Shown here piece by piece: positions 7,445-59,996 of a DNA stretch of 64,000 nucleotides (the first letter of the stretch is position 1; each line of letters starts with the position of its first letter). The position numbers and the translations under genes are program-made. The notes under the pieces were generated by a model, which had not been told where the DNA came from, did no database searches, and saw nothing but the letters and a program-made list of their open reading frames with translations. This DNA is from Betaproteobacteria bacterium (GTDB lineage Bacteria > Pseudomonadota > Gammaproteobacteria > Burkholderiales > Burkholderiaceae_A), in contig JAOINB010000001.1 in NCBI GenBank assembly GCA_028139135.1, positions 45,171-109,170 of the forward strand, given 5' to 3'.

Positions 7445-7448
7445 TGAG

Positions 7449-8468: not shown

Positions 8469-8552
8469 TTCTTTCCTTTCATAGATTCTGTATACTTAAG
8501 GAACAAACTGAGTTCGAAAAAATCTACCTAGATATTATTACTGAGTACATAA
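8469..8552. promoter_or_regulatory. Divergent intergenic region (moxR operon / secreted hypothetical)
   Basis: Inferred only from divergent gene geometry. No -35/-10 boxes could be assigned confidently. Confidence 0.3.
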
Positions 8553-16789: not shown

Positions 16790-16790
16790 T

Positions 16791-33053: not shown

Positions 33054-33096
33054 AAATTTTTTAATTGCACAATACTATATAAAGACTTTCTTGATG

Positions 33097-38657: not shown

Positions 38658-38667
38658 GGGATGAAAA

Positions 38668-39090: not shown

Positions 39091-39092
39091 AA

Positions 39093-40928: not shown

Positions 40929-41829
40929 TTTCTTGGACTCCTCTTATATAGAGCAATTAGAAAATGAAGCTATCTATATTTTGAGAGAAGTTGCAGCAAC
41001 GGCAAAAAAATCTGCGCTTCTTTTTTCCGGCGGTAAAGATTCAGTTGTACTACTACGACTTGCTGAAAAAGCATTCCGGCCCATGAAATTCCCATTTCCA
41101 CTTTTACATATAGATACAGGTCATAACTTTCCTGAAGTTATTGCGTTCAGAGATAAACGAGTTAAAGAACTTAATGAAAAGCTCATCGTCGGTTACGTTG
41201 AGGACTCGATTGCCAGGGGATCCGTAACTTTGAAAAATAAAGACGATTCGAGAAATGCAGCACAATCTGTAACTCTTCTTGAAACTATCGAGGAATATCA
41301 ATTCGATGCCCTTATAGGTGGAGCTAGAAGAGACGAAGAAAAAGCACGAGCAAAGGAACGGATTTTTTCTTTTAGAGACGAGTTTGGTCAGTGGGATCCA
41401 AAAAATCAACGTCCTGAGCTATGGGATCTTTTTAATACTCATATTGATAAAGGGGAGCATATCCGAGTATTTCCAATATCTAATTGGACAGAGATGGATG
41501 TCTGGCATTACATCATGATAGAAGAACTAGAACTTCCGTCAATATACTTTACCCACGAAAGGGAAGTGTTTTCAAAAAATAATCTACTTGTTCCAGTAAC
41601 TGAATACACGCAACCTCCTAGCGATGTAACCGTTAAAAAAAGGAATGTGAGGTTCAGAACTGTCGGAGATATATCATGTACCTGCCCTGTACTGAGTTCT
41701 GCCAAAAATCCTGAAGAAATAATTATGGAAACAGCGTCTTCTTCTCTTAGCGAAAGGGGTGCTACAAGATTAGACGATCAAACAAATGAAGCCTCTATGG
41801 AACGGAGAAAAAAAGAGGGGTACTTCTAA
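40918..41829 (+). CDS. cysD: Sulfate adenylyltransferase subunit 2
   Basis: PP-loop SGGKDSVVLL, full-length CysD. Confidence 0.9.
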   Translation: MQNNFLDSSYIEQLENEAIYILREVAATAKKSALLFSGGKDSVVLLRLAEKAFRPMKFPFPLLHIDTGHNFPEVIAFRDKRVKELNEKLIVGYVEDSIARGSVTLKNKDDSRNAAQSVTLLETIEEYQFDALIGGARRDEEKARAKERIFSFRDEFGQWDPKNQRPELWDLFNTHIDKGEHIRVFPISNWTEMDVWHYIMIEELELPSIYFTHEREVFSKNNLLVPVTEYTQPPSDVTVKKRNVRFRTVGDISCTCPVLSSAKNPEEIIMETASSSLSERGATRLDDQTNEASMERRKKEGYF

Positions 41830-41831
41830 AA

Positions 41832-43097
41832 ATGAAAAGGCATGGATTAATACGATTTATAACTGCTGGAAGTGTTGATGATGGAAAGAGTACACTCATA
41901 GGTAGGCTATTATACGACTCAAAATTAGTCTTAACCGATCAATTACACAATCTTGTCAATGCAAAAAGTAGTAGAGCATCGGAGAATGAAATTGATTTTT
42001 CTTTTTTGACAGATGGACTTGAATCTGAACGTGAACAAGGAATCACGATAGATGTAGCCTACCGATATTTTTCAACAAAAAACAATAAATTCATAATTGC
42101 AGACTGTCCAGGTCACACACAGTATACAAGAAATATGATCACTGGAGCATCTAATGCCGACTGTGTCATTCTGCTAATTGATGTAACAAAAGCTTTGGAT
42201 GGAAACCTTCTAGAGCAGACGAAAAGGCATGCGCTTGTTTCCTCGATATTAGATATACCGAATGTTATTCTTGCGGTAAACAAAATGGACCTTGTTAATT
42301 TTGACCAAAATATTTTTCAAAAAGTTACTAACTCATTCAAAAAATTTACAGAGACCTTAAATTGGAAAGTGAACTTCATATCAATACCAATTTCAGCTCT
42401 CAAAGGCGATAATATCGTAAAAAAATCAGAACAAACGGCATGGTATAGAGGTGAACCGATTATACGTGTCCTGGAAGAATTGGAGTTTAACGATCATAAT
42501 ACAGCCTCCGATTTTAAATTTCCCATTCAGTATGTGATGCGCTGGGATGGTGAAAAAGAAAAAGCACAAAGGGCTTACTGTGGAAAAATTGAAGACGGAG
42601 TCCTTAATCAAGGTCAAGAACTTAAGATAATGGGGACAGATCAACTCGTAAAAATAAAAAAAATTATTTATGGAGGAAAGGAAGTTTCTCAAGTAGAAAA
42701 AAACAGTTGCATTATGGTGTGGTTATCTGACGAAGTAGACCTTGCTAGAGGTGATGTATTATTGAATAGAGACAGTCTCCTAGTTGCGTCTTCAAGTTTG
42801 AATGTAAATATCGCATGGCTTGACAGAGACGCGTTTAATCCTAAAAAAAAATATATTCTTCGACAAGGAACTACCGAGACATTCGCAAAATTAACAGTGG
42901 AATCAAAAATAGATTTAGAAACACTAGAAAACTACAAATCATCCGAGATGAGAATGAATGAAATTGGTTCTGCAACGTTGAAACTGGCTAAACCGATTTT
43001 GAATGATGATTATACATATATAAATAAACTGGGTGCGTTGGTTTTGATTGACCCGATAACCCATCAAACTTCTGCCGCTTTAATGATCAAAGGATAA
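41832..43097 (+). CDS. cysN: Sulfate adenylyltransferase subunit 1 (GTPase only, no APS-kinase domain)
   Basis: G1 GSVDDGKST, G3 DCPGH, G4 NKMD. 421 aa. Confidence 0.9.
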   Translation: MKRHGLIRFITAGSVDDGKSTLIGRLLYDSKLVLTDQLHNLVNAKSSRASENEIDFSFLTDGLESEREQGITIDVAYRYFSTKNNKFIIADCPGHTQYTRNMITGASNADCVILLIDVTKALDGNLLEQTKRHALVSSILDIPNVILAVNKMDLVNFDQNIFQKVTNSFKKFTETLNWKVNFISIPISALKGDNIVKKSEQTAWYRGEPIIRVLEELEFNDHNTASDFKFPIQYVMRWDGEKEKAQRAYCGKIEDGVLNQGQELKIMGTDQLVKIKKIIYGGKEVSQVEKNSCIMVWLSDEVDLARGDVLLNRDSLLVASSSLNVNIAWLDRDAFNPKKKYILRQGTTETFAKLTVESKIDLETLENYKSSEMRMNEIGSATLKLAKPILNDDYTYINKLGALVLIDPITHQTSAALMIKG

Positions 43098-43108
43098 AAT
43101 ACTTTTCC

Positions 43109-44080
43109 ATGAAAATACGAGACCCCGATCTTAGTAATGATCCATTACAAAAAGAGCACGCAGAAGTAGGTTTACCTCAACTTGAAGCTGGTACATTTCA
43201 AGGGGAGAAACATCCTTTTTTGTTCCTCTTCTGTTGGATTGCGGGCTTTTGCATGCTACTTGTTTTAGTGTTTTTGGTCTCAAAATTTATTCATTCGAAT
43301 GGTACAAATTCCTTTTCAATATTACTAGATATTTTCGTGACTCCAGAATTTTGGAAGGCATTGATCATAGGATTTTTAGCTCAGGTTATTGATGGGGCTC
43401 TTGGAATGGCATATGGTATTTCAGCAACATCTTTTCTTTTGTCAACGGGATCGTCTCCGGCAGTTGCTAGTGCTAGCGTCCATATCGCAGCTGTTTTCAC
43501 AACTGGTTTATCCGGAATCTCACACGTGAACCTTGGTAACGTTTCAAAGGATCTTTTTATCAGACTGCTTATTCCTGGAATAATCGGCGCATTATTCGGC
43601 GTTCTTTTAGTTACTCAAATCGATATGGATTTTTTTAAGCCCATAATGTGCGCATATCTTCTTGTGATGGGATTAATTATTGTTAAAAAAGCTTTCAAAA
43701 AGAAAAGTCAGCAGCTGTCGAACAATACTTCAAATATTGGAAAGCTCGCATTTTTTGGCGGTTTTGTTGACTCTGCAGGTGGTGGAGGATGGGGCCCAAT
43801 TGTTACTACAAACTTACTTGGAAAAGGACAAGACCCTCGTTCAACAATTGGCTCGGTTAACTTTGCAGAATTTTTTTTAACGCTTTCTACTGCTGGTTTT
43901 TTTACAATTTTTGTTACCGCAAGTCCATGGATAAGTGTCGCTGGACTAGTAGTTGGAGGACTTTTTGCAGCTCCTTTTGCAGCATTACTTTGTAGGAAAA
44001 TTCCCCCGAAAATTTTGATGATAATTGTAGGATTGGTAGTTTGTGTGGTGAGCACATTTACCCTAGTTCAAGTTCTTTAA
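43109..44080 (+). CDS. TauE/SafE (TSUP) family anion permease
   Basis: About 8 TMs, two Gly-rich repeats. Last gene of the cys operon. Confidence 0.8.
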   Translation: MKIRDPDLSNDPLQKEHAEVGLPQLEAGTFQGEKHPFLFLFCWIAGFCMLLVLVFLVSKFIHSNGTNSFSILLDIFVTPEFWKALIIGFLAQVIDGALGMAYGISATSFLLSTGSSPAVASASVHIAAVFTTGLSGISHVNLGNVSKDLFIRLLIPGIIGALFGVLLVTQIDMDFFKPIMCAYLLVMGLIIVKKAFKKKSQQLSNNTSNIGKLAFFGGFVDSAGGGGWGPIVTTNLLGKGQDPRSTIGSVNFAEFFLTLSTAGFFTIFVTASPWISVAGLVVGGLFAAPFAALLCRKIPPKILMIIVGLVVCVVSTFTLVQVL

Positions 44081-46772: not shown

Positions 46773-47570
46773 CTATTTAACCACACCACTTTGATGGCAA
46801 AGCCCGCCCGTTATTTCAATTGTCGTGCCATTAATTGCTTCATTTTCTATGATATGTTCTATTAACATTGCGATTTCACCGGGCTCAATGAGACGATTTA
46901 AGTGTACGTCCTTTATTAATTTTTCTAATATAGCTTGATTCATATTTTCCAACATTGGGGTCTTTGTATAACCAGGGGCTATCCCTACAACTCTAATATT
47001 CTTAATTTTTTTTAGCAAAAATTCTCCCACCAATATTTTTGGAAATAACGAAATAGCAACCTTTGAAGATGAGTAATTGAGCTGACCCAATTGTCCTGCT
47101 TTATTTACAGATGAAATTGGAACAATCAGCGAAGGCCAACCTCCATTTGCCATCGCTTCCGCACAATCACGAATGGTTAAAAATGATCCTGTTAGATTAA
47201 CATTAAGCACACTGTTCCAATCCTCTAAAGACAACTTCTTGTTAACTCGTTTGGTTTCTTTGTCCATACTGATAGCCAAACCATCCCGAATTAGTCCCGC
47301 ACAAGGTATTGCGATGTTAATCTTGCTAAACTTACGAAGTGCTGCCTTAACCATTTCCAGAGACTCTTTTTCGTCAGCAACATCGCCGCAAAAAGTTTCA
47401 AAGTCGGTTATTTCTTTTTCTTGTAAAATCTCAGCAGTTTTGAGGACGGCTTCCGGGTCACGATCTGCTAAAAAAAGCATGGCCCCTTTTTGCCCGAAAT
47501 GGTCGGCAAGGCTTGCTCCAATTCCGCTTCCTGCTCCTGTAATTAATACGACAGATTCTTTAAGATTCAT
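46773..47570 (-). CDS. Short-chain dehydrogenase/reductase
   Basis: TGAGSGIG cofactor motif, YSSSK catalytic motif. Confidence 0.85.
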   Translation of the reverse strand: MNLKESVVLITGAGSGIGASLADHFGQKGAMLFLADRDPEAVLKTAEILQEKEITDFETFCGDVADEKESLEMVKAALRKFSKINIAIPCAGLIRDGLAISMDKETKRVNKKLSLEDWNSVLNVNLTGSFLTIRDCAEAMANGGWPSLIVPISSVNKAGQLGQLNYSSSKVAISLFPKILVGEFLLKKIKNIRVVGIAPGYTKTPMLENMNQAILEKLIKDVHLNRLIEPGEIAMLIEHIIENEAINGTTIEITGGLCHQSGVVK

Positions 47571-47742
47571 AAAATACCTTTGCTTATAGGGATTACCCTA
47601 TTATATTGCATTGCACAAATTATTACAGCAAAAATTTTAAATTCACCATTTTGAGAGGGGAAAATGGGCTACTCTCTATTTTCCGACTATAATTTAGGTG
47701 TCAGGCAGTTGATATGAATTATCTGCGAGTCGAATATTTATA

Positions 47743-48225
47743 ATGCCTTCGAAAGTTATTGCAAATTTTACGAATCTTATCGCTACGGGTATTTCCCTTT
47801 GGATTACTAGCGCTCTTTTTGACGGATTCTCTTTTAACACTACTGAGGCTCTATTGATTACAACAGTATTGCTCACGTTAATAAATATATTTGTAAAACC
47901 AATTATTCTATTACTGACGCTTCCACTAGCAGTTGTTTCTTTAGGCTTAATTATCCCTATAATAAATGGGGCCGTCTTGCTGGGATTAGCGGAAGTTATC
48001 CCAAACTTCGGGATAACATCATTTTTCCAGGCCATATTCGCAGCATTGTTGGTATCAATAATATCGACACTCATATACGTCGCTCTTGGAAGACATAAAA
48101 CCTTTGTTTCTGTGAAAAATTCAACGGACTTTTCCTCAGATTCGCAACGATTTTCAACTCAAAACGAGGGTTTTTCGGGAAAAAATAAGACAACAATAGA
48201 CGTAGATGTCCGTGAAAAAAAATAA
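47743..48225 (+). CDS. DUF360 / holin-family-4-like small membrane protein
   Basis: Four TMs with the DUF360-like pattern (FVKPIILLLTLPLAVVSLGL). Confidence 0.6.
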   Translation: MPSKVIANFTNLIATGISLWITSALFDGFSFNTTEALLITTVLLTLINIFVKPIILLLTLPLAVVSLGLIIPIINGAVLLGLAEVIPNFGITSFFQAIFAALLVSIISTLIYVALGRHKTFVSVKNSTDFSSDSQRFSTQNEGFSGKNKTTIDVDVREKK

Positions 48226-49227
48226 TTAGACCTGAATATAAGATAAAACCTTACGAAGCTCCTCCTGTTCCTTCCCTAATGTAGATTCAGCTACTGGACA
48301 ACTCGCGAGTTGCTTTTCCATCTGCTTCCGACATAATTCATCAAAAAAAAAGGCATGTAACTTTTCTGAAACGTCTATAGCTGAACCAACACTATGTAAA
48401 CCCACATATGCAGACCCTAATAACGCAGTGTGACATGAAATATCACTTGCAATGATTGGAAGTCCCGCATTTTGAGCCTCTTGAATCACAAGAGATCCTC
48501 CTTCAATAAAAGATGAGTGTAGTAACAAATCATAATTAGCTAAAACCGTTTGCAATTTCTCTTTTTCAATGGGACCTAAGAAAGAAATACTTTTAACACC
48601 TTCAAAAAGATTTGTTATTTTTTTAAAATAGGCCTGGTCCAAAATGCCTCCAATATGATCGAGAGTAAATTTGGTCCTCGCACCAATATTTTTCTGAAAT
48701 TCTAGGAATCCAGAAATTGCAACTATGATTCCTTTTTCTTTTCGTAAATTACTCAATAATAAAATTTTATACTGGTTCTTTTTTTTGAAAAAAAAACTCC
48801 TCTTTTTAAAATCTATAACCGACTGTAAAACTACGAAAATCCGGTTTCTTGGGAGAGAAACGACCTTCAATAAATCCGACACAGCATTTTTATGTAAAAC
48901 TACGATTGCTGATGCTAATTCAATAGATCTCAGGCAATGTTCTTTTTTGGAGTTTTTCGTTGAAATAATATCTCTATATAGATCAGTTCCTGTAAGGACC
49001 AAAATAACAGGAATATTCTTCGCGGCTAACTCTTTTACTACATGAAATCCTTTTTCAGCGTGAAGCACAAAAGCACACCTAACTCCCTCAGCATTAACTT
49101 TTTCTTCAAAGCCGTTACAAGTGGAAACCCTATACCCAAGATTTTGCAAGTGGTAAGCATATCTTTTCGCCGTAACGTAATTCCCTGTAACGACGTTATC
49201 TCTAGTGGGTGAGTAAATTTTAATCAA
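48226..49227 (-). CDS. senB: Glycosyltransferase, candidate selenosugar synthase SenB
   Basis: GT-B-like 333-aa protein (C-terminal EGGSLVIQEAQNAGLPIIASD). The TTG start lies 5 nt after the selD stop. The SenB call rests on context. Confidence 0.7.
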   Translation of the reverse strand: MIKIYSPTRDNVVTGNYVTAKRYAYHLQNLGYRVSTCNGFEEKVNAEGVRCAFVLHAEKGFHVVKELAAKNIPVILVLTGTDLYRDIISTKNSKKEHCLRSIELASAIVVLHKNAVSDLLKVVSLPRNRIFVVLQSVIDFKKRSFFFKKKNQYKILLLSNLRKEKGIIVAISGFLEFQKNIGARTKFTLDHIGGILDQAYFKKITNLFEGVKSISFLGPIEKEKLQTVLANYDLLLHSSFIEGGSLVIQEAQNAGLPIIASDISCHTALLGSAYVGLHSVGSAIDVSEKLHAFFFDELCRKQMEKQLASCPVAESTLGKEQEELRKVLSYIQV

Positions 49228-49232
49228 AGTAG

Positions 49233-50285
49233 CTAACTATGAGTAAAAATATTGTACTCGGTCTTTTTTACGACATCACCAATGATCGAAGCATCATAGC
49301 CTTCTTTAACAAAAAGATTTAACACAGACTCAGCGTCGTAGTTTTTCACAGCTACTAAAAGCCCTCCACTCGTCTGAGGGTCTGCTAGTACAACTTTATC
49401 CATATCTGAAATAGTTTTGCTAAACTGAATATCGTCTTTGATTGCATCCAGATTTCTTTGAGAGGCTCCCGTCTTATAACCCTGATTTATCAGCTCTTCT
49501 ACACCATCATGCCTTAAGATTTTTTTTTGATAAATAATCGACGATGTGTTGGAACCTATATTCATCTCATTTAAATGACCTAACAGGCCAAATCCAGTAA
49601 CATCAGTCATTGCTGTTACAGAGTCAAGCTCGCCTAATTGCATCCCAATTTTATTCAGTTGAGTTGTACTTTTAATAAAAGAATCATAGTATTGCTTGCT
49701 AAGCGAACCCTCCTTAATTGCTGCTGAGTAAACCCCTACCCCGATTTTTTTTCCTAAAATTAATCTATCTCCGACGCAGGCAGTAGAATTTTTTCGCAAA
49801 TTTTTTATATCAACTAAACCAGTAACAACAAGACCGTAAATTGGCTCCATGCTGTCAATTGTATGACCACCTGCAACAACTATTCCTGCTTCCTCACAAA
49901 TGTCACTTCCTCCTTTAAGAATTTTGGAGATCGTATTAGATGACAATGTATTTACAGGCATCCCTACAATCGCTAAGGCAAATAGTGGTTTTCCTCCCAT
50001 AGCAAAAACATCAGACAGTGCATTTGTAGCAGCAATAGCCCCAAAGTGAACTGGGTCGTCAACAATAGGCATAAAAAAATCAGTAGTAGAGACAATAGCC
50101 TGTGACTGATTAATCTGATACACAGCTGCATCATCGGATGTTCCTAGGCCAACTAATAACTCTTCGGGCGATGCAGCACCCCTAACTTTTCCGAGAATAT
50201 CTGATAAAATTCCAGGTGATACTTTGCAACCACAACCTCCCCCATGGGCAAGAGACGTTAATTTTGGCTCGTTTTTTATTTTCAT
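49233..50285 (-). CDS. selD: Selenide,water dikinase (selenophosphate synthetase), SenC role
   Basis: LAHGGGCGCKVSPGIL N-terminal motif (Cys form), AIR-synthase-like fold, 350 aa. Confidence 0.9.
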   Translation of the reverse strand: MKIKNEPKLTSLAHGGGCGCKVSPGILSDILGKVRGAASPEELLVGLGTSDDAAVYQINQSQAIVSTTDFFMPIVDDPVHFGAIAATNALSDVFAMGGKPLFALAIVGMPVNTLSSNTISKILKGGSDICEEAGIVVAGGHTIDSMEPIYGLVVTGLVDIKNLRKNSTACVGDRLILGKKIGVGVYSAAIKEGSLSKQYYDSFIKSTTQLNKIGMQLGELDSVTAMTDVTGFGLLGHLNEMNIGSNTSSIIYQKKILRHDGVEELINQGYKTGASQRNLDAIKDDIQFSKTISDMDKVVLADPQTSGGLLVAVKNYDAESVLNLFVKEGYDASIIGDVVKKTEYNIFTHS

Positions 50286-50290
50286 AGACT

Positions 50291-51550
50291 ATGAGTATAT
50301 CAAACAAAAACTTTAGGGATTTAGAACCATCCGAATTTATTGAGTGTTTTCAAAAAACCAGGCGAGAGACAGTAAAAATACTAAAAATATTTAGTGATAA
50401 CTTGGGCTCAGAATTGAGAATTCCCAACCTAATGGAAGCTAATTTACCAGTCTGGGAATTTTGTCATGTAGGTTGGTTTTATGAACGCTGGATCGTCAGA
50501 AATACACGATGTTCTTTTGACAAAAGGTATGATCTTTCTGTTGATTGGGACAATTTTTGTAGTAGTAGAACTCATTTTGAGGATGCAGATTCTATTTTCG
50601 ATTCTAGCAAAATAGAGCATGACGCGAGGTGGGATTGCAGCCTTCCCACATTCTACGAGACGCTAGATTACTTGCAAAAAATAAGGGATGCCGTAATAGA
50701 AAAATTCGAGACAAATTTGCCTCAAGGTAATGAAACTTTCTATTTTTACAAATTAAGCCTTGCGCACGAAATGATGCATCTCGAAGCATTTAAAATGACA
50801 GCTCAAATACTTAATTTTGAAATTCCAGAATTAAAAAGTAAATATTTAAATCTTGATTGTAGTTCTGAAAGCCCTTTTTTATCTTTCAATGAACAAACTA
50901 TTTCTCCATATCATGAAAATTATGCATTTCACTTTGACAATGAAATTTTCAATGGAGAAACTACTGTCAAGCCGTTTAAAATTCAATCATCTTGTGTAAG
51001 CTTAAAAAGTTTTTTAGAATTCCTACTTTCCGACGATTTTTTGAATGCTAGCTTTTGGTCCAAGGAGGGAAAAATATGGCTCTCTACAAGCTTTTATAAT
51101 AAATCTTTTTATAAGAATATAAAAAAAGAATTTAAAAAAATTACAGATATCGACTCTGAATTCGTAAAAATTAAATGGTTTGGAAAAAATGAGAATTTAC
51201 ATTTAAATCTACCAGCCTTACATGTTTCTTTCTTTGAGGCTGAAGCATACGCTAACTGGAGAGGCATGCGTCTTCCAACCGAGTTGGAATGGCTTCTTGC
51301 GTCACAAAGTACAAACTTTCATTGGGGAGATGTTTGGGAGTGGACATCGAATACGTTTTCTGAGTTTCCAGACTTTGTTACACACCCGTATAGGGACTAT
51401 TCGAAACCATGGTTTGACGGACAACATAAAACTGTAAAAGGAGCAAGTTTTGCAACTTGCGAAGATTTCCGTAACCTACATTTTCGGAATTTTTATAAGC
51501 CGACCAGAACAGATATTTTCTCAGGTTTCAGGACTGCCTGTTTCGTTTAG
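50291..51550 (+). CDS. senA: EgtB-like non-heme-iron sulfoxide/selenoxide synthase, candidate selenoneine synthase SenA
   Basis: DinB-like N-domain with HVGWFYERW and HX3HXE (LAHEMMHLE). C-terminal FGE-sulfatase-like domain (ANWRGMRLPTELEW, WEWTSN, GFRTA). No OvoA-type methyltransferase domain. Confidence 0.75.
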   Translation: MSISNKNFRDLEPSEFIECFQKTRRETVKILKIFSDNLGSELRIPNLMEANLPVWEFCHVGWFYERWIVRNTRCSFDKRYDLSVDWDNFCSSRTHFEDADSIFDSSKIEHDARWDCSLPTFYETLDYLQKIRDAVIEKFETNLPQGNETFYFYKLSLAHEMMHLEAFKMTAQILNFEIPELKSKYLNLDCSSESPFLSFNEQTISPYHENYAFHFDNEIFNGETTVKPFKIQSSCVSLKSFLEFLLSDDFLNASFWSKEGKIWLSTSFYNKSFYKNIKKEFKKITDIDSEFVKIKWFGKNENLHLNLPALHVSFFEAEAYANWRGMRLPTELEWLLASQSTNFHWGDVWEWTSNTFSEFPDFVTHPYRDYSKPWFDGQHKTVKGASFATCEDFRNLHFRNFYKPTRTDIFSGFRTACFV

Positions 51551-52463
51551 CAACGAAAATACCGTACCTATTGCTAGGATGTAAAAAGTCATAGATATCA
51601 ACGTAACCAGAACCCAGCAATAAATTTTTAAAAGATTCCTGTGAATATTTGTGTGAATTTTCAGTATGGATTGATTCCCCTTTGGAAAATACTCGCTTCC
51701 CGAAAGGAGAATTCACGGGTTGCGTGCTTTTTGCTACCAAGTGCATCTCAATACGAGACTTAGAAGAATTATAAATTGCTTTGTGACTCCAATTTCCAAC
51801 TTCAAAATCTGTACCTAATAGCGCATTTGCATTCAATAATGCGTTCTTGTTGAATGCAGCTGTAACACCAAGTGAATCATCATAGGCACTAATCATTTCT
51901 TGTTCTGGCTTTATCAAGTCAACACCGATAATAATAGAGTCATGATCAATACTCATTAGAAAGTTCTTTGCATCCGCTGGGGAGTAATTTCCAATAGTTG
52001 ATCCAGGGAAAAAAAGTACTTTGTCAAGGTTGTAAATTGTATCCCCAACTATTCGAGCCATCTCACTCAAGAAAAGTCCGGATGTAAAATCTTTTTCAAG
52101 CGCGTAGATCTTTTGATTTCTTAACGAGTTCTTTAGTCTTGTTACGGAGTTCTTGAAAAATTTAGATGGCAAATCAACCGCCAAAAATACCTCTGGACAC
52201 ACCTCAGGCAGTACCTTTTCTGCCTTTGAACAATTCCCAGCTCCCAAATCAATCAAACAAATATCAGAAGGGAGAATCTTTTTTATTTCTCGGATTCTAT
52301 TCTGAAAAATTGAGAGCTCATCCTTTGTGGGGGTATATTCTTCCAGCCTTGTTATAGCTTCGAAAAGAAGACCTCCGAGACTATTATAAAAAAAACGCGG
52401 AGGCAAAAACGCTTGTGAATTTACGAACAATCCTTCTAGGGCTTTTTTGTCATCTTCTGTCAT
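51528..52463 (-). CDS. egtD: L-histidine N-alpha-methyltransferase (hercynine synthase)
   Basis: FFYNSLGGLLFEAITRLEEYTPTKDE...LIDLGAGNCSKAEK is the EgtD pattern. GGAGGA SD. The ATG directly follows the phnE stop. Confidence 0.85.
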   Translation of the reverse strand: MTEDDKKALEGLFVNSQAFLPPRFFYNSLGGLLFEAITRLEEYTPTKDELSIFQNRIREIKKILPSDICLIDLGAGNCSKAEKVLPEVCPEVFLAVDLPSKFFKNSVTRLKNSLRNQKIYALEKDFTSGLFLSEMARIVGDTIYNLDKVLFFPGSTIGNYSPADAKNFLMSIDHDSIIIGVDLIKPEQEMISAYDDSLGVTAAFNKNALLNANALLGTDFEVGNWSHKAIYNSSKSRIEMHLVAKSTQPVNSPFGKRVFSKGESIHTENSHKYSQESFKNLLLGSGYVDIYDFLHPSNRYGIFVAKRNRQS

Positions 52464-53228
52464 TTAATAAATCCTCCGTCTAATTGAGTAACTAAGTCCG
52501 TCAACGAACAGTATCAACAAAAGCATCGCTAAAATTACTGTACAAGCCTTATCCATTAAAAAGAGTCCTAGATGGAAACTTAATAATTGACCTAAACCAC
52601 CTGCTCCAACTAAACCTAAAACAGATGCAACCCTGATATTATTTTCCCAACGATAGAGAATATAGCTTAAGAACTGAACAGTTAATTGAGACATTTTATT
52701 GTGTAAGAAAATATTGAAATTACTTACACCATTAATCCTGAGCACTCTGGGCGCTTCGGGCGGAACATTTTCCAGAGCATCAGAAAATAGTCGCCCTAAA
52801 ACACCGGTAGTGTGAAAAATAATTGCTAAGCAACCGGCAAATGGACCCAATCCAGCACTTATTATTAACAATGCAGCCCAAACTAATTCCGGTATGGAAC
52901 GAAGTACATTCAGAAGAAACTTACAAAAATCCGAGGAAATCTTTCCCACAAGCGTATCAGTGTATTCACTGCTGAAGTAAGCTAAAATTAATCCGAAAAT
53001 CGCCGATAAGAAAGTGCCCATGATGGAAATTGCCAATGTTTCCCAAAGGGCGATTAAAATAGCTTTTAAAAAATCTCTTTCTGTATGTGGCGGGAAAAAT
53101 TCCGCTAAAAACTTAAAAATATTTTCTAGGTTATCAAATGCAACGAGCTCACCTAATCTTAAATCTACTTGCGTAAAACTGAAAATTAAAAGGAGAAAAA
53201 CTATTGACACTGTTACAAGTTTGTTCAC
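52464..53228 (-). CDS. phnE: Phosphonate-type ABC transporter permease (PhnE-like, copy 2)
   Basis: 6 TMs, PhnE-like core (LRSIPELVWA). Confidence 0.85.
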   Translation of the reverse strand: MNKLVTVSIVFLLLIFSFTQVDLRLGELVAFDNLENIFKFLAEFFPPHTERDFLKAILIALWETLAISIMGTFLSAIFGLILAYFSSEYTDTLVGKISSDFCKFLLNVLRSIPELVWAALLIISAGLGPFAGCLAIIFHTTGVLGRLFSDALENVPPEAPRVLRINGVSNFNIFLHNKMSQLTVQFLSYILYRWENNIRVASVLGLVGAGGLGQLLSFHLGLFLMDKACTVILAMLLLILFVDGLSYSIRRRIY

Positions 53229-54046
53229 GTTAAACTCTTTCTAATGCTTTTACTGAAGTAATCAGATAACCAAACTAACACAATAAAGGCAAATAAAATC
53301 GTAAGAACCTCATCACCAGCAAACATTTTTAAGGAGCTTTCTAACTGAAAACCTAGTCCTCCGGCTCCGACAAAACCCATGATTACGGTTGATCGAAGAG
53401 CACATTCCCATCTATAAACTGTATACGATAAAAGTTCTAATAAATTTTGAGGAATAAGGAAGTACATAAGTACTTGTAGTCTGCTGCAGCCTATTTGCAT
53501 AGCGTATTTTCCTGGAAGATTATCTCCACTTTCTAATATTTCTGCATAAACTTTTCCAAGCATTCCCCCATAGGTAAGGGCAATAGCTAGTATTCCTGCT
53601 GTAGGTCCAAGTCCTACAACCCTAACGAAAATTAATGCCCAAACAATTTCAGGAATACTACGTAACAAAATCAACAAAGCCCTAATTAAATATCGCAATA
53701 AATACGGAAGAACAGGCTTTCTATTTTCAAATTCGGAAACAGATAATGCAGTTGTAATTAATAATGCAGATGGTATCCCAATAAAAAGAGCGAAAAATAA
53801 ACCGACTGTAGCAATTGCTACTGTCTGAAGAGAACTTTCAAACACTTCTAACAAAAAAGTATCAGTTAAATTTGGCGGGTAAAAAGTTGACAAGAAATCA
53901 ATGGTAATCTTTAAATTTTTCTCGCCAAATAAAACCCAAGGGTAAAATTCAACAGTTTTAATTAAAGGGAAAAATAGAACTATGAAAATCACAACGAAGG
54001 TAAAATTTCTTCGAGCAATTGTATCCTTGTATTCAGAAGCTAACAC
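53225..54046 (-). CDS. phnE: Phosphonate-type ABC transporter permease (PhnE-like, copy 1)
   Basis: 6 TMs, LRSIPEIVWALIF motif shared with copy 2. Confidence 0.85.
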   Translation of the reverse strand: MLASEYKDTIARRNFTFVVIFIVLFFPLIKTVEFYPWVLFGEKNLKITIDFLSTFYPPNLTDTFLLEVFESSLQTVAIATVGLFFALFIGIPSALLITTALSVSEFENRKPVLPYLLRYLIRALLILLRSIPEIVWALIFVRVVGLGPTAGILAIALTYGGMLGKVYAEILESGDNLPGKYAMQIGCSRLQVLMYFLIPQNLLELLSYTVYRWECALRSTVIMGFVGAGGLGFQLESSLKMFAGDEVLTILFAFIVLVWLSDYFSKSIRKSLT

Positions 54047-54804
54047 TTTACATGTCTTTCATAAGTGTCCTCTAATAGAGAAGATGTAACTTTTTCTACA
54101 GGAAGGTCGAATGCCAGATTCCCTTCCTTGATTCCGACTATCCTTGGAAAGTATCTCAGAGCAAATTCGACCTGATGCAAAGTGCAGACAAACGTAATCT
54201 TCTTTTGTTTTGCATGATCACGTAGTGTTTTAATAACAGTATCTGCAAGCTTTGGATCTAAGCCAGACAGTGGTTCATCGATTGTCCAAAAAGAGGCATC
54301 AGATATTAACGCCCTTGCTAATGACACCCTCTGTCTCTCACCTCCGGATAGTTGGTCTACCCTATTTGCAATTTTGTCACTTAGTTGAAACTCATGTAAG
54401 ACTTCTGTTACAGCATGAACATTCTTTGGATAAATTAAAGAGACCAAAGAAGTTAAAAGATTCGTCGTAGGCAAACAACCTGCCAAAACCGCGTTGTACA
54501 CACTCTGACGCAATGGAAACGAAGGTTCTTGCGGGACAAAACTCACCAATCTCCTAAGTTTGTGACGAACTACACTTGAAGATAACCAGGGATTTAGCTC
54601 ATTAAAAAAAACTTGTCCTGAAGATGGTTCTGAGGCAAATATCAATGCCTTAAGGAGGGACGTTTTTCCAGCCCCCGAGGAACCAACGATTGCAACCTGC
54701 TCTCCTTGAGAAAACCCTAAATCAATACCATTCAAGATGGTTTTAGTATTTCCTTTTGGAGTTACGACTCTTTGACAATAATTTTTTAATAATACGGAAC
54801 CCAA
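54040..54804 (-). CDS. phnC: Phosphonate-type ABC transporter ATP-binding protein
   Basis: Walker A GSSGAGKTS, signature LSGGERQRVSLA, Walker B WTIDEP. TTG start. Confidence 0.9.
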   Translation of the reverse strand: MGSVLLKNYCQRVVTPKGNTKTILNGIDLGFSQGEQVAIVGSSGAGKTSLLKALIFASEPSSGQVFFNELNPWLSSSVVRHKLRRLVSFVPQEPSFPLRQSVYNAVLAGCLPTTNLLTSLVSLIYPKNVHAVTEVLHEFQLSDKIANRVDQLSGGERQRVSLARALISDASFWTIDEPLSGLDPKLADTVIKTLRDHAKQKKITFVCTLHQVEFALRYFPRIVGIKEGNLAFDLPVEKVTSSLLEDTYERHVKC

Positions 54805-54813
54805 GAGAAACTG

Positions 54814-55674
54814 TTACTTTAAAAGTCCTGCGTTTCGTGCAGCCTTTTCAATATCTCCATAATTTTCTGCATTGGTTGCAATAAAACCGGATGCCCTTTG
54901 CAATTCCAGTATGCGTTTACCAGCTTCTGTATCGTTAGATAGTTTCAGGAATGCTTTGGTAATATTCTGTCTGACAGTTTCTGAAACTTCCTTATGAACT
55001 GTCCAATTATAGTCGTAATAAAACGGCGTTGTATAAAAGACTCTCGTACCCTCTGGTACTTTGTTTTCTTTGGATAACTTCTCCCATACTTTGATGTTGA
55101 GAGCACCCGCTTGCACCTTCCCGGAACCTACTGATGCAACTGTCGCATCGTGAGCACCGCTATAAGCCGTGCGCTTAAAATCTTCTTCAGGATTTATTCC
55201 AGCTTTAGCTAAAAATGTTCTAGGCATCAAGTGACCACTAGTTGAGCTCTGTGAACCGAAAGAGAAGGTTACTCCGTTCAAATCAGCCAATGTCTTAATC
55301 TTTGGATCCGTCGTAATGAATACTGATTGAAATTTTTCATCTTCGACCCGTTGAATGATCGGCATTACATTGTTGCCGGACCTGATCTTAGCCTGCACAA
55401 AAGTAAATCCTCCATACCAGGCCATATCTACTTTACGATTGACAAGGGCCTCTACAGCAGCCGCGTAATCTGTAACTGGGATAAATTCGATTGTTAGTCC
55501 AGTTTCCTTTTCTAAGTGGTCAATCAAGGGCTCAGCTTTACGAAGTAATTCCGTAGGAGCCTCATCCGGAATGGCAGTAATTTTAAAACTATCTTCAGAC
55601 TTTTGCTCATTACTGCAAGATACTAGTAAAAGAGAAAAAAGCGAAGCAATCCCTATTTTGACTAAACGATTCAT
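54814..55674 (-). CDS. phnD: PhnD-family (phosphate/phosphite/phosphonate-type) periplasmic binding lipoprotein
   Basis: Start chosen at MNRLVKIGIASLFSLLLVSC (lipobox) with GAGGG SD. FIPVTDYAAAVEALVNRKVDMAWYGG and STSGHLMPR motifs. Confidence 0.85.
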   Translation of the reverse strand: MNRLVKIGIASLFSLLLVSCSNEQKSEDSFKITAIPDEAPTELLRKAEPLIDHLEKETGLTIEFIPVTDYAAAVEALVNRKVDMAWYGGFTFVQAKIRSGNNVMPIIQRVEDEKFQSVFITTDPKIKTLADLNGVTFSFGSQSSTSGHLMPRTFLAKAGINPEEDFKRTAYSGAHDATVASVGSGKVQAGALNIKVWEKLSKENKVPEGTRVFYTTPFYYDYNWTVHKEVSETVRQNITKAFLKLSNDTEAGKRILELQRASGFIATNAENYGDIEKAARNAGLLK

Positions 55675-55750
55675 CTTGACCCTCAAAATATCTATTGTAA
55701 CAGACGTGAAGCTAAGTGTCCTCATGAGTTCGTAATTTCATTGTTGGTCG

Positions 55751-58033
55751 TTAGTCAATTAAAAGTTCGACAATCTCTTCCTTATCTAACCACTCAGAAA
55801 AAATAAAAGGGGCTTGGCCTGGTCGAAGTAGAATATTTAATGGAACGCCGACTCTCCCATATTTTTTTATTTCATTCTCAATTTCCTTATTTTGCTTTGT
55901 CCAATCAGCCCGAATAAGTATGATATTTTTCTCAGCAAATAAATCTACAAGCTGTTCGTCTTCAAGAACTCTTACTTTATTAACTTGACAAGTAATACAC
56001 CAAGTCGCTGTAAAATCTAACAAAACTGTGTCGCCTTTTTGCAAAAACAGTTCAGGCAGACCAATCTCCCAATTCTTCCATTCAATTTTTTCCTTCGTGA
56101 TACTAATAACTTCATCCTTTTCGTTCCTATCTGACAGAGTGTCAAAACTTTTTTTCGAATGTGCATTAAATACACTATGCGCAGTTATCACAATTGCAAT
56201 TATCAGAACCAAACGTACAACATTGATTTGATATATTATGTTAGAACTTGTTTTGTATTGTTTCGGAAAATGTTTCTTATGCCAGAAAAATATGGCGGCA
56301 AGAATCAAGATAACAAATATTTGGAGTATTGATTCATTCCCTTCTAACTCAATATATATTAGTAAAAGCCAACCCGCAGAGATTAACATCGGGAAACCGA
56401 GAAACTCTCGAAGCAACTCCATCCATTTTCCAGGTTTCGGTAAAAACCCTATTAACCGCGGATTACTGGCCAAAACGACGTAGGGAAAAGAAATTCCTAT
56501 GCCCAAAGCAAAAAACACAAGTATTAATTCAGTATTTGATGTGCTAACAGCATAACCTAGAGCACTACCCATAAAGGGAGCGGTACAGGGAGTCGCCACA
56601 ACAACGGTTAATGCCCCACTGAAAAAATTACCCAAAAACCCTGAATAGCGATCATAGGAAGCAAGGGAGAGCGAACTTGTTGCAAACTCAAAAAATCCAA
56701 ACAAATTTAATGCCATGAGAAAAAAAAGGAAGACTAAACAAAGAACAAATGATGAATTTTGCAACTGAAAACCCCAACCAATGCTGGTCCCTGAATTTCT
56801 CAGCAATATAAACGTAACTGCAAAAAGTAACATAAATGAAAGAACACCAAGTGAAAACCCAAGGGTATTGATATTGCTCTGGAATCCATTATTGCTCGTT
56901 TTAATTAAGCTCAAAACCTTAATTCCAATAACTGGAAAAACACATGGCATAAGATTTAAAATCAACCCTCCAAAAAAAGCAAAGCCAATACTCACTAAAA
57001 AACCGATGTTTGTCTTAAAGTACCTATCATCTGCATCATTTGTTAAAATTCTTTCGGAGGTCCCTGCTAGGTCTAAATTCTCTAAATTTCTTTCATCAAA
57101 ATCTCGGTATTCTAGTTTTATGTATTTTGAAGAACCATCAGAAAATTTTAGCAAGCCATTAAGGGACTCGATTCCCAACTTTCCAACCTCGGGTGTTTCT
57201 GTATTCAACTTAGATTCTAAACGCCAGCCTATATCTTTAGTTGCAACATCCCTCACGTTAACAAATGATTGTGTTGCCGATGGGACAATTAATCCTTTTT
57301 TTAAAGGAAAAAATTCGGGACTTTTTTCTAGTTTTTCTAAAAAGCTATAAATATATAGTTTTTTATAATCTTTGCTATGTGACCAAAATAACCTGTTGGA
57401 AAAAGCTACGTCTTCTTTTGGATTGTTTTTTCTCACATTTTCTATGGATCTAGAATAAGATGTTCTACCAACTTCCAAATCTTCTGAAACTGGTAGCCTA
57501 ACCGACAATGTTTTATTTCCTGGAATACAAACATCTTTACAAATTAACCAGGCAACATTGACATCAATACGTACTGAATCCGTTACCAAATCATCTGGCA
57601 TAGATATGTCTTGTAATAGAAGCAAACTATTTTCGTATCCATAATTTGCCAGGGTGTCAATTAAAAACTTTTTTGGGGTTGGCCATTGAATCGGTCCTAC
57701 TTTCCAAAGTCCATTAGCAACCGAAAAGTTATGACTAATTTTAGTAGGGAGGCCAGTATCACCAGGATTGGACCAGTACGTATGCCAGCCAGGATCATGC
57801 TCCATTTTTACACCAAGCGTAAATGTGTTTCCGGGACTGATAGCTTTTCTGTCCGTGACCAACCCAATCTGTAGATTTCCTTCCCGAGCTAAACCCTCAA
57901 CATTATTAGACATGTTAAAAAATGTTGGTAAATCCTGGGCTAAAAGAAAATTTCCTTGAAAACCAGCTACCTCGGTTAACAAGAAAAAGATAAATATAAA
58001 AAAAGTACGTTTTACGCGTATCCCTTTGTTCAT
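55751..58033 (-). CDS. DsbD-superfamily transmembrane thiol:disulfide reductant transporter, ScsB-like (760 aa)
   Basis: Long periplasmic N-domain with LICKDVCIP. TM core with MPCVFP and TPCTAPF cysteines. C-terminal thioredoxin TATWCITCQ. Confidence 0.85.
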   Translation of the reverse strand: MNKGIRVKRTFFIFIFFLLTEVAGFQGNFLLAQDLPTFFNMSNNVEGLAREGNLQIGLVTDRKAISPGNTFTLGVKMEHDPGWHTYWSNPGDTGLPTKISHNFSVANGLWKVGPIQWPTPKKFLIDTLANYGYENSLLLLQDISMPDDLVTDSVRIDVNVAWLICKDVCIPGNKTLSVRLPVSEDLEVGRTSYSRSIENVRKNNPKEDVAFSNRLFWSHSKDYKKLYIYSFLEKLEKSPEFFPLKKGLIVPSATQSFVNVRDVATKDIGWRLESKLNTETPEVGKLGIESLNGLLKFSDGSSKYIKLEYRDFDERNLENLDLAGTSERILTNDADDRYFKTNIGFLVSIGFAFFGGLILNLMPCVFPVIGIKVLSLIKTSNNGFQSNINTLGFSLGVLSFMLLFAVTFILLRNSGTSIGWGFQLQNSSFVLCLVFLFFLMALNLFGFFEFATSSLSLASYDRYSGFLGNFFSGALTVVVATPCTAPFMGSALGYAVSTSNTELILVFFALGIGISFPYVVLASNPRLIGFLPKPGKWMELLREFLGFPMLISAGWLLLIYIELEGNESILQIFVILILAAIFFWHKKHFPKQYKTSSNIIYQINVVRLVLIIAIVITAHSVFNAHSKKSFDTLSDRNEKDEVISITKEKIEWKNWEIGLPELFLQKGDTVLLDFTATWCITCQVNKVRVLEDEQLVDLFAEKNIILIRADWTKQNKEIENEIKKYGRVGVPLNILLRPGQAPFIFSEWLDKEEIVELLID

Positions 58034-58223
58034 GACCCTACGCTAAAAATATGACTAACACCGATATGAAGCGAATTCCTCTGTGTAATTCCAATATATG
58101 CCCGCTGTTCAATTACTTTGGGCTTGATATCATTAGATAAGTTCTCGCCTAAATCTACGAAAATAACTAAGTTAGCTTAATCGTTGACCGAAAACGCCTG
58201 CTTTGATGCGTAAATCCATAGAG

Positions 58224-58598
58224 TCACTTATTAAAATTGCAAATTTCTAACCCGCGTTGAGGGTAGTAAGTACGCGAATTACTTTCCAAAACAACCTCTG
58301 CTTCACGAGAAACATAATCACCGTGAAATCCTGTACAACGCCAATTCTTAGAATCTTCCATTTGGCACCCTTTATATTCTCTCCAAACAGCCTTTCCCCC
58401 TTTGTCGAAGCCTATAGCGACAACCCTCCGGGAACTAAAATCTGGTATCAGCGTATACTTGAATGAATCTATGCACCGCTCGCAATTCGACCCTTCCTCG
58501 CAGATGCCAAAGTGGATCTCTAGATCACCAGCATGTAAGGGGAAACTGGAAGCTATAAAACCACACAAACCCCAACAAATGTTTTTTAACCGTCTCAT
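58224..58598 (-). CDS. Small secreted Cys-rich hypothetical protein
   Basis: Signal peptide and about 8 Cys in the mature part. No family recognised. Confidence 0.5.
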   Translation of the reverse strand: MRRLKNICWGLCGFIASSFPLHAGDLEIHFGICEEGSNCERCIDSFKYTLIPDFSSRRVVAIGFDKGGKAVWREYKGCQMEDSKNWRCTGFHGDYVSREAEVVLESNSRTYYPQRGLEICNFNK

Positions 58599-58745
58599 GA
58601 ACTGAAATTATCGCCGATTTAAAAACCAAAAACCATCGGGAAAACCGCTATTACTAGAATTCCCATCAACTAGCGTAAACTATAGTATAAATAAACAAAA
58701 GTCTGATTCCTTTAATTTAATTTGTTGCGTAACGTAAGCTTTTCC

Positions 58746-59996
58746 ATGCATGTAAATATAGACAGTAACTACGAAGACAAAACTGGTGCAAAATTAGCCT
58801 CTGAGCTAATTCGTAAATGTGTGCACTGTGGATTTTGTAATGCCACTTGTCCTACGTACCAAACCCTGGGAGACGAGAGGAGTGGCCCTAGGGGCAGAAT
58901 TTCAATAATTAAGGATTTGTTGGAGGGAAAACCCACTTCAACCGATTCTTTACATCACCTGGATCAATGCTTACTATGCCGTAACTGCGAAACAACCTGC
59001 CCGAGTGGAGTTCAATATTCTAAGATTTATGAGCATGGAAAACCACTTATGGAAAATGTTGAAAAAAGACAATTTTGGCGTCGATTTATAAGAACTATTT
59101 TAAAAAAATTTTTATTGTCAAAAAGCTTTCATATTAGTATTTTCATAGCAAATCTCTTCAAGTCTGTTTTGCCGAAAAACGTAAGAGCTTTCTTGCCAAA
59201 TAAAAAACTCCACACCATTCCAACTAATATAAACCTAAAAAAACAAAATAAAAATTTTCATAGCAAGTCGTATAATATTTTGCTATTTCGTGGATGCGTT
59301 CAAAAATCACTAAAGCCTGCTATAAATACCGCGACAGAACTTGTGTTAAATGCTGCAAATTGCAAAACATTCATTGCTACAGATAGTGTTTGTTGCGGAG
59401 CTTTAGAAGGTCACCTATCAGACAAGACAGCGAAATTAAAACGCGTAAAAGAGAATATCTCCCATTGGAAGAACGCCATACAAAAAAATAAGATTGATTT
59501 TTTAGTTTCCGCAGCTTCTGCATGTAGCTATGAAATAAAGGATTACCTCAACGTAAGCGGGTTATCTGAAGACGAAAAAAAATCAGTTAAGGATATTGTC
59601 AACATAACCAGAGATATCTCAGAGTTACTTCCACAAATCTATGAGTCATTGAAAAACACGATAAAGATAAAGGATGAGAAAATAGCTTTCCACCCCCCTT
59701 GCACTTTACAACATGGATTGAAAATCAACGGATTGATTGAAAAATATTTCAAAGATTTTGGCTATGACATAGAGACTCAGTTTCCTGAAAAACACTTGTG
59801 CTGTGGCTCAGCTGGAACATACTCTATACTTAACCCAAAAATTGCAGGAGAACTCAGAGATCGAAAACTCACCAATCTCCATCAAACCGGATGCTCACAA
59901 ATCTTAACCGCGAATATCGGATGTATAACACACCTACAGTCTAAGTCTGATAAGCCCGTAAAGCATTGGATAGAAAAATTAGCCGAAGATCTTTAG
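58746..59996 (+). CDS. glcF: GlcF-like Fe-S protein (two 4Fe-4S motifs + two CCG domains)
   Basis: CVHCGFCNATCP and CLLCRNCETTCP. CCG motifs SVCCGALEG and HLCCGSAGTY. Start placed at the first ATG (the track start 58722 is a TTG). Confidence 0.75.
   Translation: MHVNIDSNYEDKTGAKLASELIRKCVHCGFCNATCPTYQTLGDERSGPRGRISIIKDLLEGKPTSTDSLHHLDQCLLCRNCETTCPSGVQYSKIYEHGKPLMENVEKRQFWRRFIRTILKKFLLSKSFHISIFIANLFKSVLPKNVRAFLPNKKLHTIPTNINLKKQNKNFHSKSYNILLFRGCVQKSLKPAINTATELVLNAANCKTFIATDSVCCGALEGHLSDKTAKLKRVKENISHWKNAIQKNKIDFLVSAASACSYEIKDYLNVSGLSEDEKKSVKDIVNITRDISELLPQIYESLKNTIKIKDEKIAFHPPCTLQHGLKINGLIEKYFKDFGYDIETQFPEKHLCCGSAGTYSILNPKIAGELRDRKLTNLHQTGCSQILTANIGCITHLQSKSDKPVKHWIEKLAEDL

Follow-up and report, generated by a model that had tools for sequence, protein, structure and literature searches.

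The closest described systems are the sen clusters of selenoneine biosynthesis, which have been characterised in one Variovorax strain and one Amycolatopsis strain (bioRxiv 10.1101/2022.04.13.486033). Selenoneine has been made in vitro with no enzymes beyond SenC, SenB, SenA and EgtD (bioRxiv 10.1101/2022.04.13.486033), and clusters with a co-localised egtD and selenate transporter were already noted in 2022 (Kayrouz et al.; bioRxiv 10.1101/2022.04.13.486033). Here we describe a sen-type locus in a 64,000-nucleotide stretch from a Betaproteobacteria bacterium (assembly GCA_028139135.1, contig JAOINB010000001.1, positions 45,171 to 109,170 of the forward strand; this whole stretch is hereafter called the window). 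We consider it highly likely that the locus encodes a self-contained pathway to selenoneine together with a selenium supply of its own. The prediction draws on gene content, residue conservation, fold, phylogeny and synteny; from these we infer all of the chemistry, what the transporter carries and how the operons are arranged.

The system is of an already known kind in a known extended configuration, and it brings no new chemistry. What is new is the host, an uncultured, AT-rich lineage of pelagic Burkholderiaceae; the divergence of three of the enzymes to below the NCBI thresholds; and the joining of egtD to the predicted importer operon.

The window and the sen clusters of V. paradoxus and other Burkholderiales have in common a core of three enzymes, equal active-site residues and a host order, and in both the window and V. 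paradoxus senA diverges from the senB/senC pair. The differences lie in sequence, gene order and habitat. SenA of the window is 29–36% and SenB 24–31% identical to the canonical proteins; GC content is 37.5%, compared with 52–68% in canonical sen loci; and SenA, SenB and EgtD score below the cutoffs of their family models. In the window selD precedes senB, whereas canonical sen loci have senB followed by senC. The hosts of window-type loci are uncultured pelagic marine bacteria, unlike those of canonical sen clusters.

Two further systems are related. The ovs (ovoselenol) cluster of aquatic gammaproteobacteria also has SenB, SenC, a SenA-related member of the NHISS family and aquatic hosts. 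It differs in that OvsA carries Met/Gln/Ala where the window protein carries Tyr/Asn/Phe, in that it uses an N-pi-methyltransferase, and in that most ovs hosts are without egtD (PMC11030361). The ergothioneine pathway (egtABCDE) has EgtD and hercynine in common with the window, and EgtB and SenA both combine DinB with an FGE-sulfatase fold, a three-His iron site and a catalytic Tyr. The differences are that the thiol-binding Arg87/Asp416 of EgtB-I are replaced by His/Tyr in the window, where the chalcogen donor would be the selenosugar made by SenB and SenC, and that none of egtA, egtC and egtE was found among the scanned ORFs of the 64-kb window.

The closest database proteins are metagenomic (SenA 84–85% and SenB up to 92% identical) and belong to clusters of 100–165 members. 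A scan of GTDB representative genomes gave two close relatives: the 'Burkholderiaceae bacterium' metagenome-assembled genome (MAG) L005 (contig JAYQTQ010000002; SenA 83% identical) and L006, 'Betaproteobacteria bacterium TMED41' (SenA 41% identical). The remaining GTDB matches are Burkholderiales and other SenA sequences at 29–36% identity. Contigs from Tara Oceans and other marine metagenomes (L001–L004) carry a relative of 64% identity. The layout of eight genes described below, plus a DsbD gene, is conserved in L001–L006, down to 41% SenA identity. In L005 (8053–11804) the reading frames that match SenA, SenB and EgtD are interrupted and come out shorter (SenA ORF 171 aa, SenB 295 aa); these could be frameshifts from long-read assembly error in a 'pilon'-polished assembly, not real pseudogenes.

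The four candidate enzymes

We compared the proteins with families by NCBIfam and Pfam profile searches, judging NCBIfam scores against the curated equivalog cutoffs. The 419-aa protein is matched best by the SenA model NF041186 (348.4 bits, E 6e-104; cutoff 420). This is nearly twice its score against the EgtB model TIGR03440 (182.8 bits, cutoff 360), and the OvoA model reaches 96.2 bits (cutoff 400). Solved structures rank in the same way in a HMMER comparison with the PDB: SenA first (8k5i/8ryz, E 7e-59), then OvsA (9e-29) and EgtB (3e-22). An earlier reading of the window from its sequence alone (hereafter the sequence-only reading) had described a DinB-like N-domain with the motif LAHEMMHLE, followed by an FGE-sulfatase-like domain. 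Pfam calls the latter. For the former the support is mixed: the motif is there and residues 21–415 align to the V. paradoxus SenA structure, so that the N-terminal half still aligns full-length, but Pfam makes no DinB call on this protein.

Active-site residues give a sharper answer. NHISS subfamilies are told apart by 17-position composite motifs; that of SenA reads xNEH--HRHxHYYN(F/Y)(F/Y)R (PMC11030361). To locate the positions we aligned some 200 homologues with MAFFT; the first 'x' position was unmapped. The 419-aa protein carries N51 E56 H59 / H110 R113 / H159 M162 H163 / Y367 Y370 / N400 F401 Y402 R406, agreeing with the SenA motif at 14 of the 14 readable positions, and these 14 sites are invariant across 13 members of its close clade. 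The read-out discriminates, because the bottom-ranked homologues (P0109–P0120) carry the EgtB-I motif instead. Moreover, H59, H159, H163 and Y367 map onto SenA residues with assigned roles (HMMER alignment to 8ryz/8k5i; roles in PMC11237966), and the EgtB thiol-binding residues Arg87 and Asp416 correspond to His110 and Tyr402, the His/Tyr replacement highlighted by Kayrouz et al. (bioRxiv 10.1101/2022.04.13.486033).

In a neighbour-joining tree of 114 sequences with EgtB-I as outgroup, 60 of 60 bootstraps recover the marine clade to which the window belongs as a monophyletic group. This clade falls inside the SenA-motif radiation of Burkholderiales, beside NCBI-named Burkholderiaceae SenA. Motif, family rank and tree together support the assignment of the 419-aa protein as a SenA-type selenoneine synthase, as had been proposed from the sequence alone.

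The glycosyltransferase is likewise SenB-type, as had been proposed. Its best NCBIfam model is TIGR04348 (162.1 bits, E 1.6e-47; cutoff 300), the next-best family being NF038229 (118.4 bits, cutoff 400); Pfam calls Glycos_transf_1. Sequence matches in the PDB are SenB entries only (E 1e-14), and the named homologues are all TIGR04348/SenB. We built an AlphaFold (AF2) model on an alignment of 52 sequences (predicted local distance difference test score 93.3, predicted template-modelling score 0.90). Foldseek ranks 1–15 against the PDB are all SenB/RsSenB (E 3e-23 to 4e-18; template-modelling (TM) score 0.75–0.87, with 0.82–0.87 for the ligand-bound V. paradoxus SenB entries). The next match is BshA (E 4e-15), so that the GT4 enzymes BshA and MshA rank behind.

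The residues on which V. paradoxus SenB depends are present in the window protein. N20, T23, H58, T83, T85, D86, R155, K158, E231 and E239 are conserved, and mutagenesis supports Asn20/Thr23, His58, Thr83/Thr85, Arg155, the catalytic Lys158, Glu231 and Glu239 (PMC10891094). In window numbering the selenophosphate pocket and catalytic lysine comprise N16, H56, T79, T81, R162 and K165, and the UDP-sugar residues are also conserved, apart from the changes in the EGGAHV motif given below. A Val157-to-Glu difference from V. paradoxus was considered as a specificity change and rejected: most SenBs have Glu here, and it is V. paradoxus that departs from them. Overlap with or adjacency to selD is the genome-mining criterion for SenB (Kayrouz 2022; bioRxiv 10.1101/2022.04.13.486033), and window senB lies 5 nt from selD, an arrangement kept in L001, L002 and L005.

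SelD, the SenC of this locus, is a selenophosphate synthetase in its Cys form, just as the sequence-only reading had it. The protein scores well above cutoff with NF002098 (457.6 bits, E 2e-137; cutoff 299) and TIGR00476 (396.9 bits, cutoff 125), Pfam calls AIRS and AIRS_C, and the glycine-rich N-terminal loop with its Cys and Lys (LAHGGGCGCKV) is present. At the equivalent position L001 has a 78% and L005 a 97% identical protein.

The methyltransferase is of the EgtD type, again in agreement with the earlier proposal. TIGR03438 is its best match, at full-length coverage (259.7 bits, E 3e-77; cutoff 290.9); Pfam Methyltransf_33 (PF10017) scores 248.9 bits (cutoff 23), and the match to EgtD in the PDB has E 7e-37. 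Tyr39, Phe47, Tyr56, Asn166, Tyr206, Thr213, Met252, Glu282 and Ser284 are all identical to those of M. smegmatis EgtD 4pim (in this alignment, chain index equals residue number + 2). Met252 is reported as a histidine-pocket residue in the original EgtD structure paper. The histidine-binding roles of the other eight are described in PMC8593015.

Importer genes and layout of the locus

The sequence-only reading had presented a complete pathway of four genes. The senC–senB/senA/egtD assignment stands, and all four open reading frames (ORFs) and their junctions were found in the sequence as described. The number of genes does not stand. Four genes of an ATP-binding cassette (ABC) importer that adjoin egtD (52464–55725, minus strand) had been overlooked, and because this selenate-type importer appears to be co-operonic with egtD, the cassette comprises at least eight genes rather than four (Table 1). 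By profile comparison, the best family is the expected one for all eight, from senB to the substrate-binding protein; among them, SelD and the TIGR04553 binding protein exceed the curated NCBIfam cutoffs.

Table 1. Genes of the locus with their predicted products (gene or product, window coordinates, strand, details)
senB	48226..49227	-	333 aa, TTG start; predicted selenosugar synthase (Se-glycosyltransferase)
senC / selD	49233..50285	-	350 aa; stand-alone selenophosphate synthetase, Cys form
senA	50291..51550	+	419 aa; predicted non-haem-iron selenoneine (selenoxide) synthase
egtD	51528..52463	-	311 aa; predicted histidine N-alpha-trimethyltransferase (hercynine synthase)
ABC importer permease, PhnE-type	52464..53228	-	TIGR01097 PhnE 234.8 bits, cutoff 216.7
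second ABC importer permease, PhnE-type	53225..54046	-	TIGR01097 188.4 bits
ABC importer ATPase, PhnC-type	54040..54804	-	TIGR02315 177.3 bits; Pfam ABC_tran
periplasmic substrate-binding lipoprotein, 'putative selenate ABC transporter' family	54814..55725	-	TIGR04553 358.6 bits, cutoff 250
DsbD-type thiol:disulfide electron transporter	55751..58033	-	760 aa; Pfam DsbD_N, DsbD_TM, Thioredoxin_7

The importer proteins resemble those that adjoin canonical sen clusters. The binding protein is 49–63% identical to its counterparts there, the permease next to egtD 47–52%, and the second permease 45–56% (36% for locus L065). The true start of the binding protein is probably Met18 (about 55674), 17 codons past the listed start; this start gives a lipoprotein signal and lipobox, MNRLVKIGIASLFSLLLVSC, with the signal ending in LLVSC. 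The L001 homologue has 285 aa.

The importer genes are tightly packed. The gap between the binding-protein gene and phnC is 9 nt, phnC and the following permease gene overlap by 7 nt, the two permease genes overlap by 4 nt, and between permease and egtD there is 0 nt, the stop codon of the former abutting the start codon of the latter. This spacing suggests an operon of binding protein, phnC, phnE, phnE and egtD, with egtD as its last gene. A scan of positions 47400–58900 for sigma-70 promoters and terminators gave fewer promoter-like sites than shuffled sequences and terminators at chance level; it is thus uninformative on boundaries, and the operon structure is read from gene spacing.

The remaining junctions are just as close. 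Between the TAG stop of selD and TTG ATT AAA, the start of senB, lie 5 nt, and the translation of senB is probably coupled to that of selD. The start codons of selD and senA diverge with 5 bp between them (CAT AGACT ATG; window 50283–50293), which means that each promoter and leader lies inside the other gene or that the mRNAs are leaderless. Close divergent spacing is seen in relatives too (senB–senA 17 nt in L048, about 16 nt in L001). On its other side senA converges on egtD, and the two overlap by 23 nt (51528–51550), an overlap that is identical in the Tara relative L001. Beyond senB lies a gene for a 160-aa, four-transmembrane protein of the Phage_holin_4_2 family (PF04020, 68.8 bits; window 47743–48225, plus strand), which is kept in L001 and L005. 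It ends 1 base before the senB stop codon, so that the two genes are convergent with zero spacing.

The DsbD gene stands 25 nt upstream of the listed start of the binding-protein gene, or about 76 nt if the start is Met18. It may be co-transcribed with the importer, and its membership of the system is uncertain. The adjacency is kept in L001–L006, including the TMED41 branch (41% SenA identity; DsbD 36% identical), and no canonical sen locus that we compared has a DsbD neighbour.

An identical set of eight genes occurs in extended sen loci of Ramlibacter (L048), Limnohabitans (L042/L050) and Polaromonas (L063/L074), and also in Rubrivivax: senC, senB, senA, egtD, the TIGR04553 binding protein, phnC and two phnE, with egtD converging on senA. 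These loci of freshwater and soil Burkholderiales differ from the window in three ways. Their importer is on the strand opposite egtD and forms a separate divergent unit, whereas in the window an inversion puts egtD last; they have no DsbD neighbour; and SenC of L048 (6645–8930, minus strand) is a 761-aa fusion of an N-terminal pyridine-nucleotide-disulfide oxidoreductase (TIGR03169 'Nterm_to_SelD', 501.9 bits) with SelD, whereas window SelD stands alone. Weak tblastn matches to window SelD (31–35%) suggest the same kind of fusion in L032, L043, L049, L050, L052, L063 and L065.

Weighing the alternatives

Several observations weigh against the proposed selenoneine pathway and its selenium supply. 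SenA, SenB and EgtD find their best matches in the expected families yet stay below the NCBIfam cutoffs, and the NCBI rule would not name them. SenB shares as little as 24–31% identity with canonical SenBs, and its EGGAHV sugar-donor motif reads EGGSLV, with a His235-to-Leu change found only in this clade. TIGR04553 is a 'hypothetical equivalog' model with a putative role in selenate transport. The neighbour-joining tree is without OvsA, OvoA and EgtB-II references, and in it the branch leading to the marine clade is long. The locus encodes no selenium reductase. Finally, the lineage is known from sequence and models, and its chemistry is deduced by homology.

The low scores most likely reflect compositional drift. 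GC content is 37.4% in L001, 36.8% in L005 and 32.8% in L006, close to that of the window, and FYMINK residues make up 34% of window SenA, compared with 12–16% of canonical SenAs. A new subfamily was considered as the cause and rejected: we prefer drift because the residues needed for function are those of canonical enzymes, the tree puts the clade within SenA, and the shift in GC and amino-acid content is extreme. In the Ramlibacter MAG L048, a canonical control locus with the same genes, all cutoffs are exceeded (SenB 419.6, SenA 476.8, EgtD 351.2, binding protein 357.3 bits).

Could selD and the importer serve other ends? On this account selD would mainly support selenocysteine or selenouridine synthesis elsewhere, the ABC system would import phosphonate or phosphite, and there would be no dedicated selenium island. 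We regard it as improbable, and it is the best of the alternatives. Our view is limited to 64 kb of the genome, the function of the TIGR04553 family is hypothesised, and the permeases and ATPase match PhnE and PhnC. The binding protein also matches PhnD, but at 152 bits it fails the PhnD cutoff of 261, whereas it passes that of TIGR04553. The 5-nt spacing of selD and senB is found throughout the clade; homologous importers stand beside sen genes in 17 of 80 related GTDB loci, as well as in the marine loci, and about 15–17 of the 80 combine this importer with senB, senA and egtD; and egtD is apparently co-operonic with the importer. A selD that also served other pathways would not contradict selenoneine synthesis.

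The rest of the window points the same way. Of its 47 ORFs with 200 aa or more, 38 were compared with NCBIfam or Pfam (the nine left out are the second abhydrolase, an SDR, two ABC genes and five of six ORFs read as antisense shadows). Among the 38 there is no match to selA, selB, selU or egtA/B/C/E, in line with the sequence-only reading; CysN gives the expected weak cross-match to the SelB GTPase domain and nothing more. ARAGORN found no tRNAs and Rfam no families at gathering threshold in the window, which leaves no riboswitch, SECIS or tRNA-Sec lead. The earlier suggestion that selD is dedicated to small-molecule selenium chemistry thus holds within the 64-kb window; its extension to the whole genome is not established.

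A second alternative accepts SenA-, SenB- and SenC-like enzymes and supposes that the divergent SenB uses another UDP-sugar, or that the pathway ends not in plain selenoneine but in a modified selenoimidazole or selenosugar. Of the four enzymes, SenB has diverged furthest. In EGGSLV, Glu231, Gly232, Gly233 and Val236 are kept, Ala234 has become Ser and His235 has become Leu, and window Lys59 occupies the position of V. paradoxus Arg61. The change at 235 is pertinent, for in V. paradoxus SenB the C4' hydroxyl of the sugar is touched by His235 (PMC10891094) and Leu235 is confined to the marine clade; many NHISS members with divergent motifs are, besides, uncharacterised (PMC11030361). Against this, position 235 already varies among canonical SenBs (His, Asn, Gln or Thr), SenB is promiscuous for six UDP-sugars (PMC10891094), and the substrate residues of SenA are canonical here. 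Moreover, the sugar is eliminated after C–Se bond formation (bioRxiv 10.1101/2022.04.13.486033), so a change of donor need not alter the product. A variant donor would probably leave the end product unchanged, and we judge this alternative somewhat less likely still than a shared selD.

There is very little to be said for an ergothioneine (sulfur) locus in which an EgtB-type sulfoxide synthase works with EgtD, and selD and the glycosyltransferase are unrelated neighbours. EgtD is common to both pathways, some database homologues are auto-named EgtB, and TIGR03440 does match the 419-aa protein, although at about half the SenA score and far under its cutoff. The EgtB-I composite motif, xSDH--RRHQHYYNWDR (PMC11030361), calls for SDH, RR, HQH, YY, NWD and R; the protein has NEH, HR, HMH and NFY at the corresponding sites, with His110 and Tyr402 in place of Arg87 and Asp416. 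True EgtB-I sequences form the outgroup of the tree, the selD–senB coupling is conserved across the clade, and none of egtA, egtC and egtE turned up among the 38 window ORFs scanned.

An ovoselenol-type pathway, in which an OvsA-like enzyme selenates C5 of free histidine, is equally implausible: OvsA is the second-best solved-structure match and belongs to a sister family of SenA that also works with SenB and SenC (PMC11030361), but its motif, xNEH--HRHxHYMQAYR (PMC11030361), is not that of the 419-aa protein, which has the SenA-like Tyr370/Asn400/Phe401 at the Met/Gln/Ala positions, and the methyltransferase next to it belongs to the EgtD type, its histidine pocket for the alpha-amino and carboxylate groups being intact, rather than to the OvsM/OvoA N-pi-methyltransferases. 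Indeed, Tyr/Asn/Phe put into OvsA switch that enzyme to hercynine and C2 chemistry (PMC11030361).

Predicted pathway and its meaning

The proposed route from selenium uptake to selenoneine would run as follows. The ABC importer of the 'putative selenate' family would take up a selenium oxyanion from seawater. The oxyanion would be reduced to selenide by thiols or by the assimilatory sulfate genes 5–11 kb upstream, a step that the locus does not encode. SelD/SenC would convert selenide and ATP to selenophosphate. In SenB, selenophosphate would attack a UDP-sugar, and Se–P hydrolysis through Lys165 (the equivalent of K158) would release a 1-seleno-sugar. EgtD would trimethylate histidine to hercynine. 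SenA, with Fe(II) and O2, would then join the selenosugar to C2 of the hercynine imidazole as a selenoxide, from which the sugar would be eliminated, reduction giving selenoneine. Three transcription units are predicted: selD–senB (minus strand), senA (plus strand), and binding protein–phnC–phnE–phnE–egtD (minus strand), perhaps headed by dsbD. Placing egtD within the importer operon would co-express selenium import and hercynine supply.

The assimilatory sulfate-reduction block lies at 36978–44080 (plus strand), and encodes a NirA/sulfite-reductase family protein, CobA (siroheme branch), the APS reductase CysH, CysD, CysN and a TauE/SafE-family membrane protein. L001 and L005 have the block in synteny, which looks like ordinary vertical conservation; that it could reduce selenate non-specifically is speculation. 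Elsewhere the window (772–2654, 14218–18698 and 31363–34248) encodes PQQ/quinoprotein-dehydrogenase-associated beta-propeller and MoxJ-like binding proteins, the 2-methylcitrate cycle set prpC, prpD and prpE, and two photolyase/cryptochrome-family genes. By their family assignments, these other genes fit a sunlit-ocean heterotroph or a methylotroph-like lifestyle. Six consecutive ORFs at 3150–9293 (246–340 aa; five on the minus strand, one on the plus strand) have no NCBIfam match at E 1e-20.

The 80 related loci were examined with flanks of up to 10 kb per side, several of the contigs being short. In about 42 of them a SenA-motif gene occurs with no senB or selD match within these flanks (for example L007, L015–L018, L024–L031 and L033–L041; mostly Rhodoferax, Hylemonella and Curvibacter). 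In such hosts the sen genes may be split across the genome, or the selenium donor may come from elsewhere.

Most of the organic selenium in tuna and other marine animals is selenoneine, a compound with links to methylmercury detoxification; tuna, marine mammals and those who eat them accumulate it. To our knowledge, its primary producers in the sea have not been established. In the literature we searched there was no relevant report of marine, metagenomic or pelagic sen clusters, and a prior description is possible. The window holds a complete predicted pathway and a probable high-affinity selenium importer in a lineage of free-living ocean bacterioplankton. As a tentative idea, and one we think unlikely as a whole, low-GC pelagic Burkholderiaceae with this cassette for import, hercynine and selenoneine, which recur in Tara Oceans and other marine assemblies, could be an overlooked de novo marine source of selenoneine, perhaps feeding tuna and mammals, and the union of egtD with the importer genes, perhaps with the link to DsbD, could be adaptations to nanomolar oceanic selenium.

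The significance of the locus is moderate to low for mechanism and somewhat higher for marine selenium ecology. Because the curated models miss this lineage, surveys relying on them would undercount the marine potential for selenoneine synthesis. The window genes, together with the SenA composite motif, provide markers with which to measure this capacity in metagenomes and metatranscriptomes from the ocean, and the genes could be used for heterologous expression.

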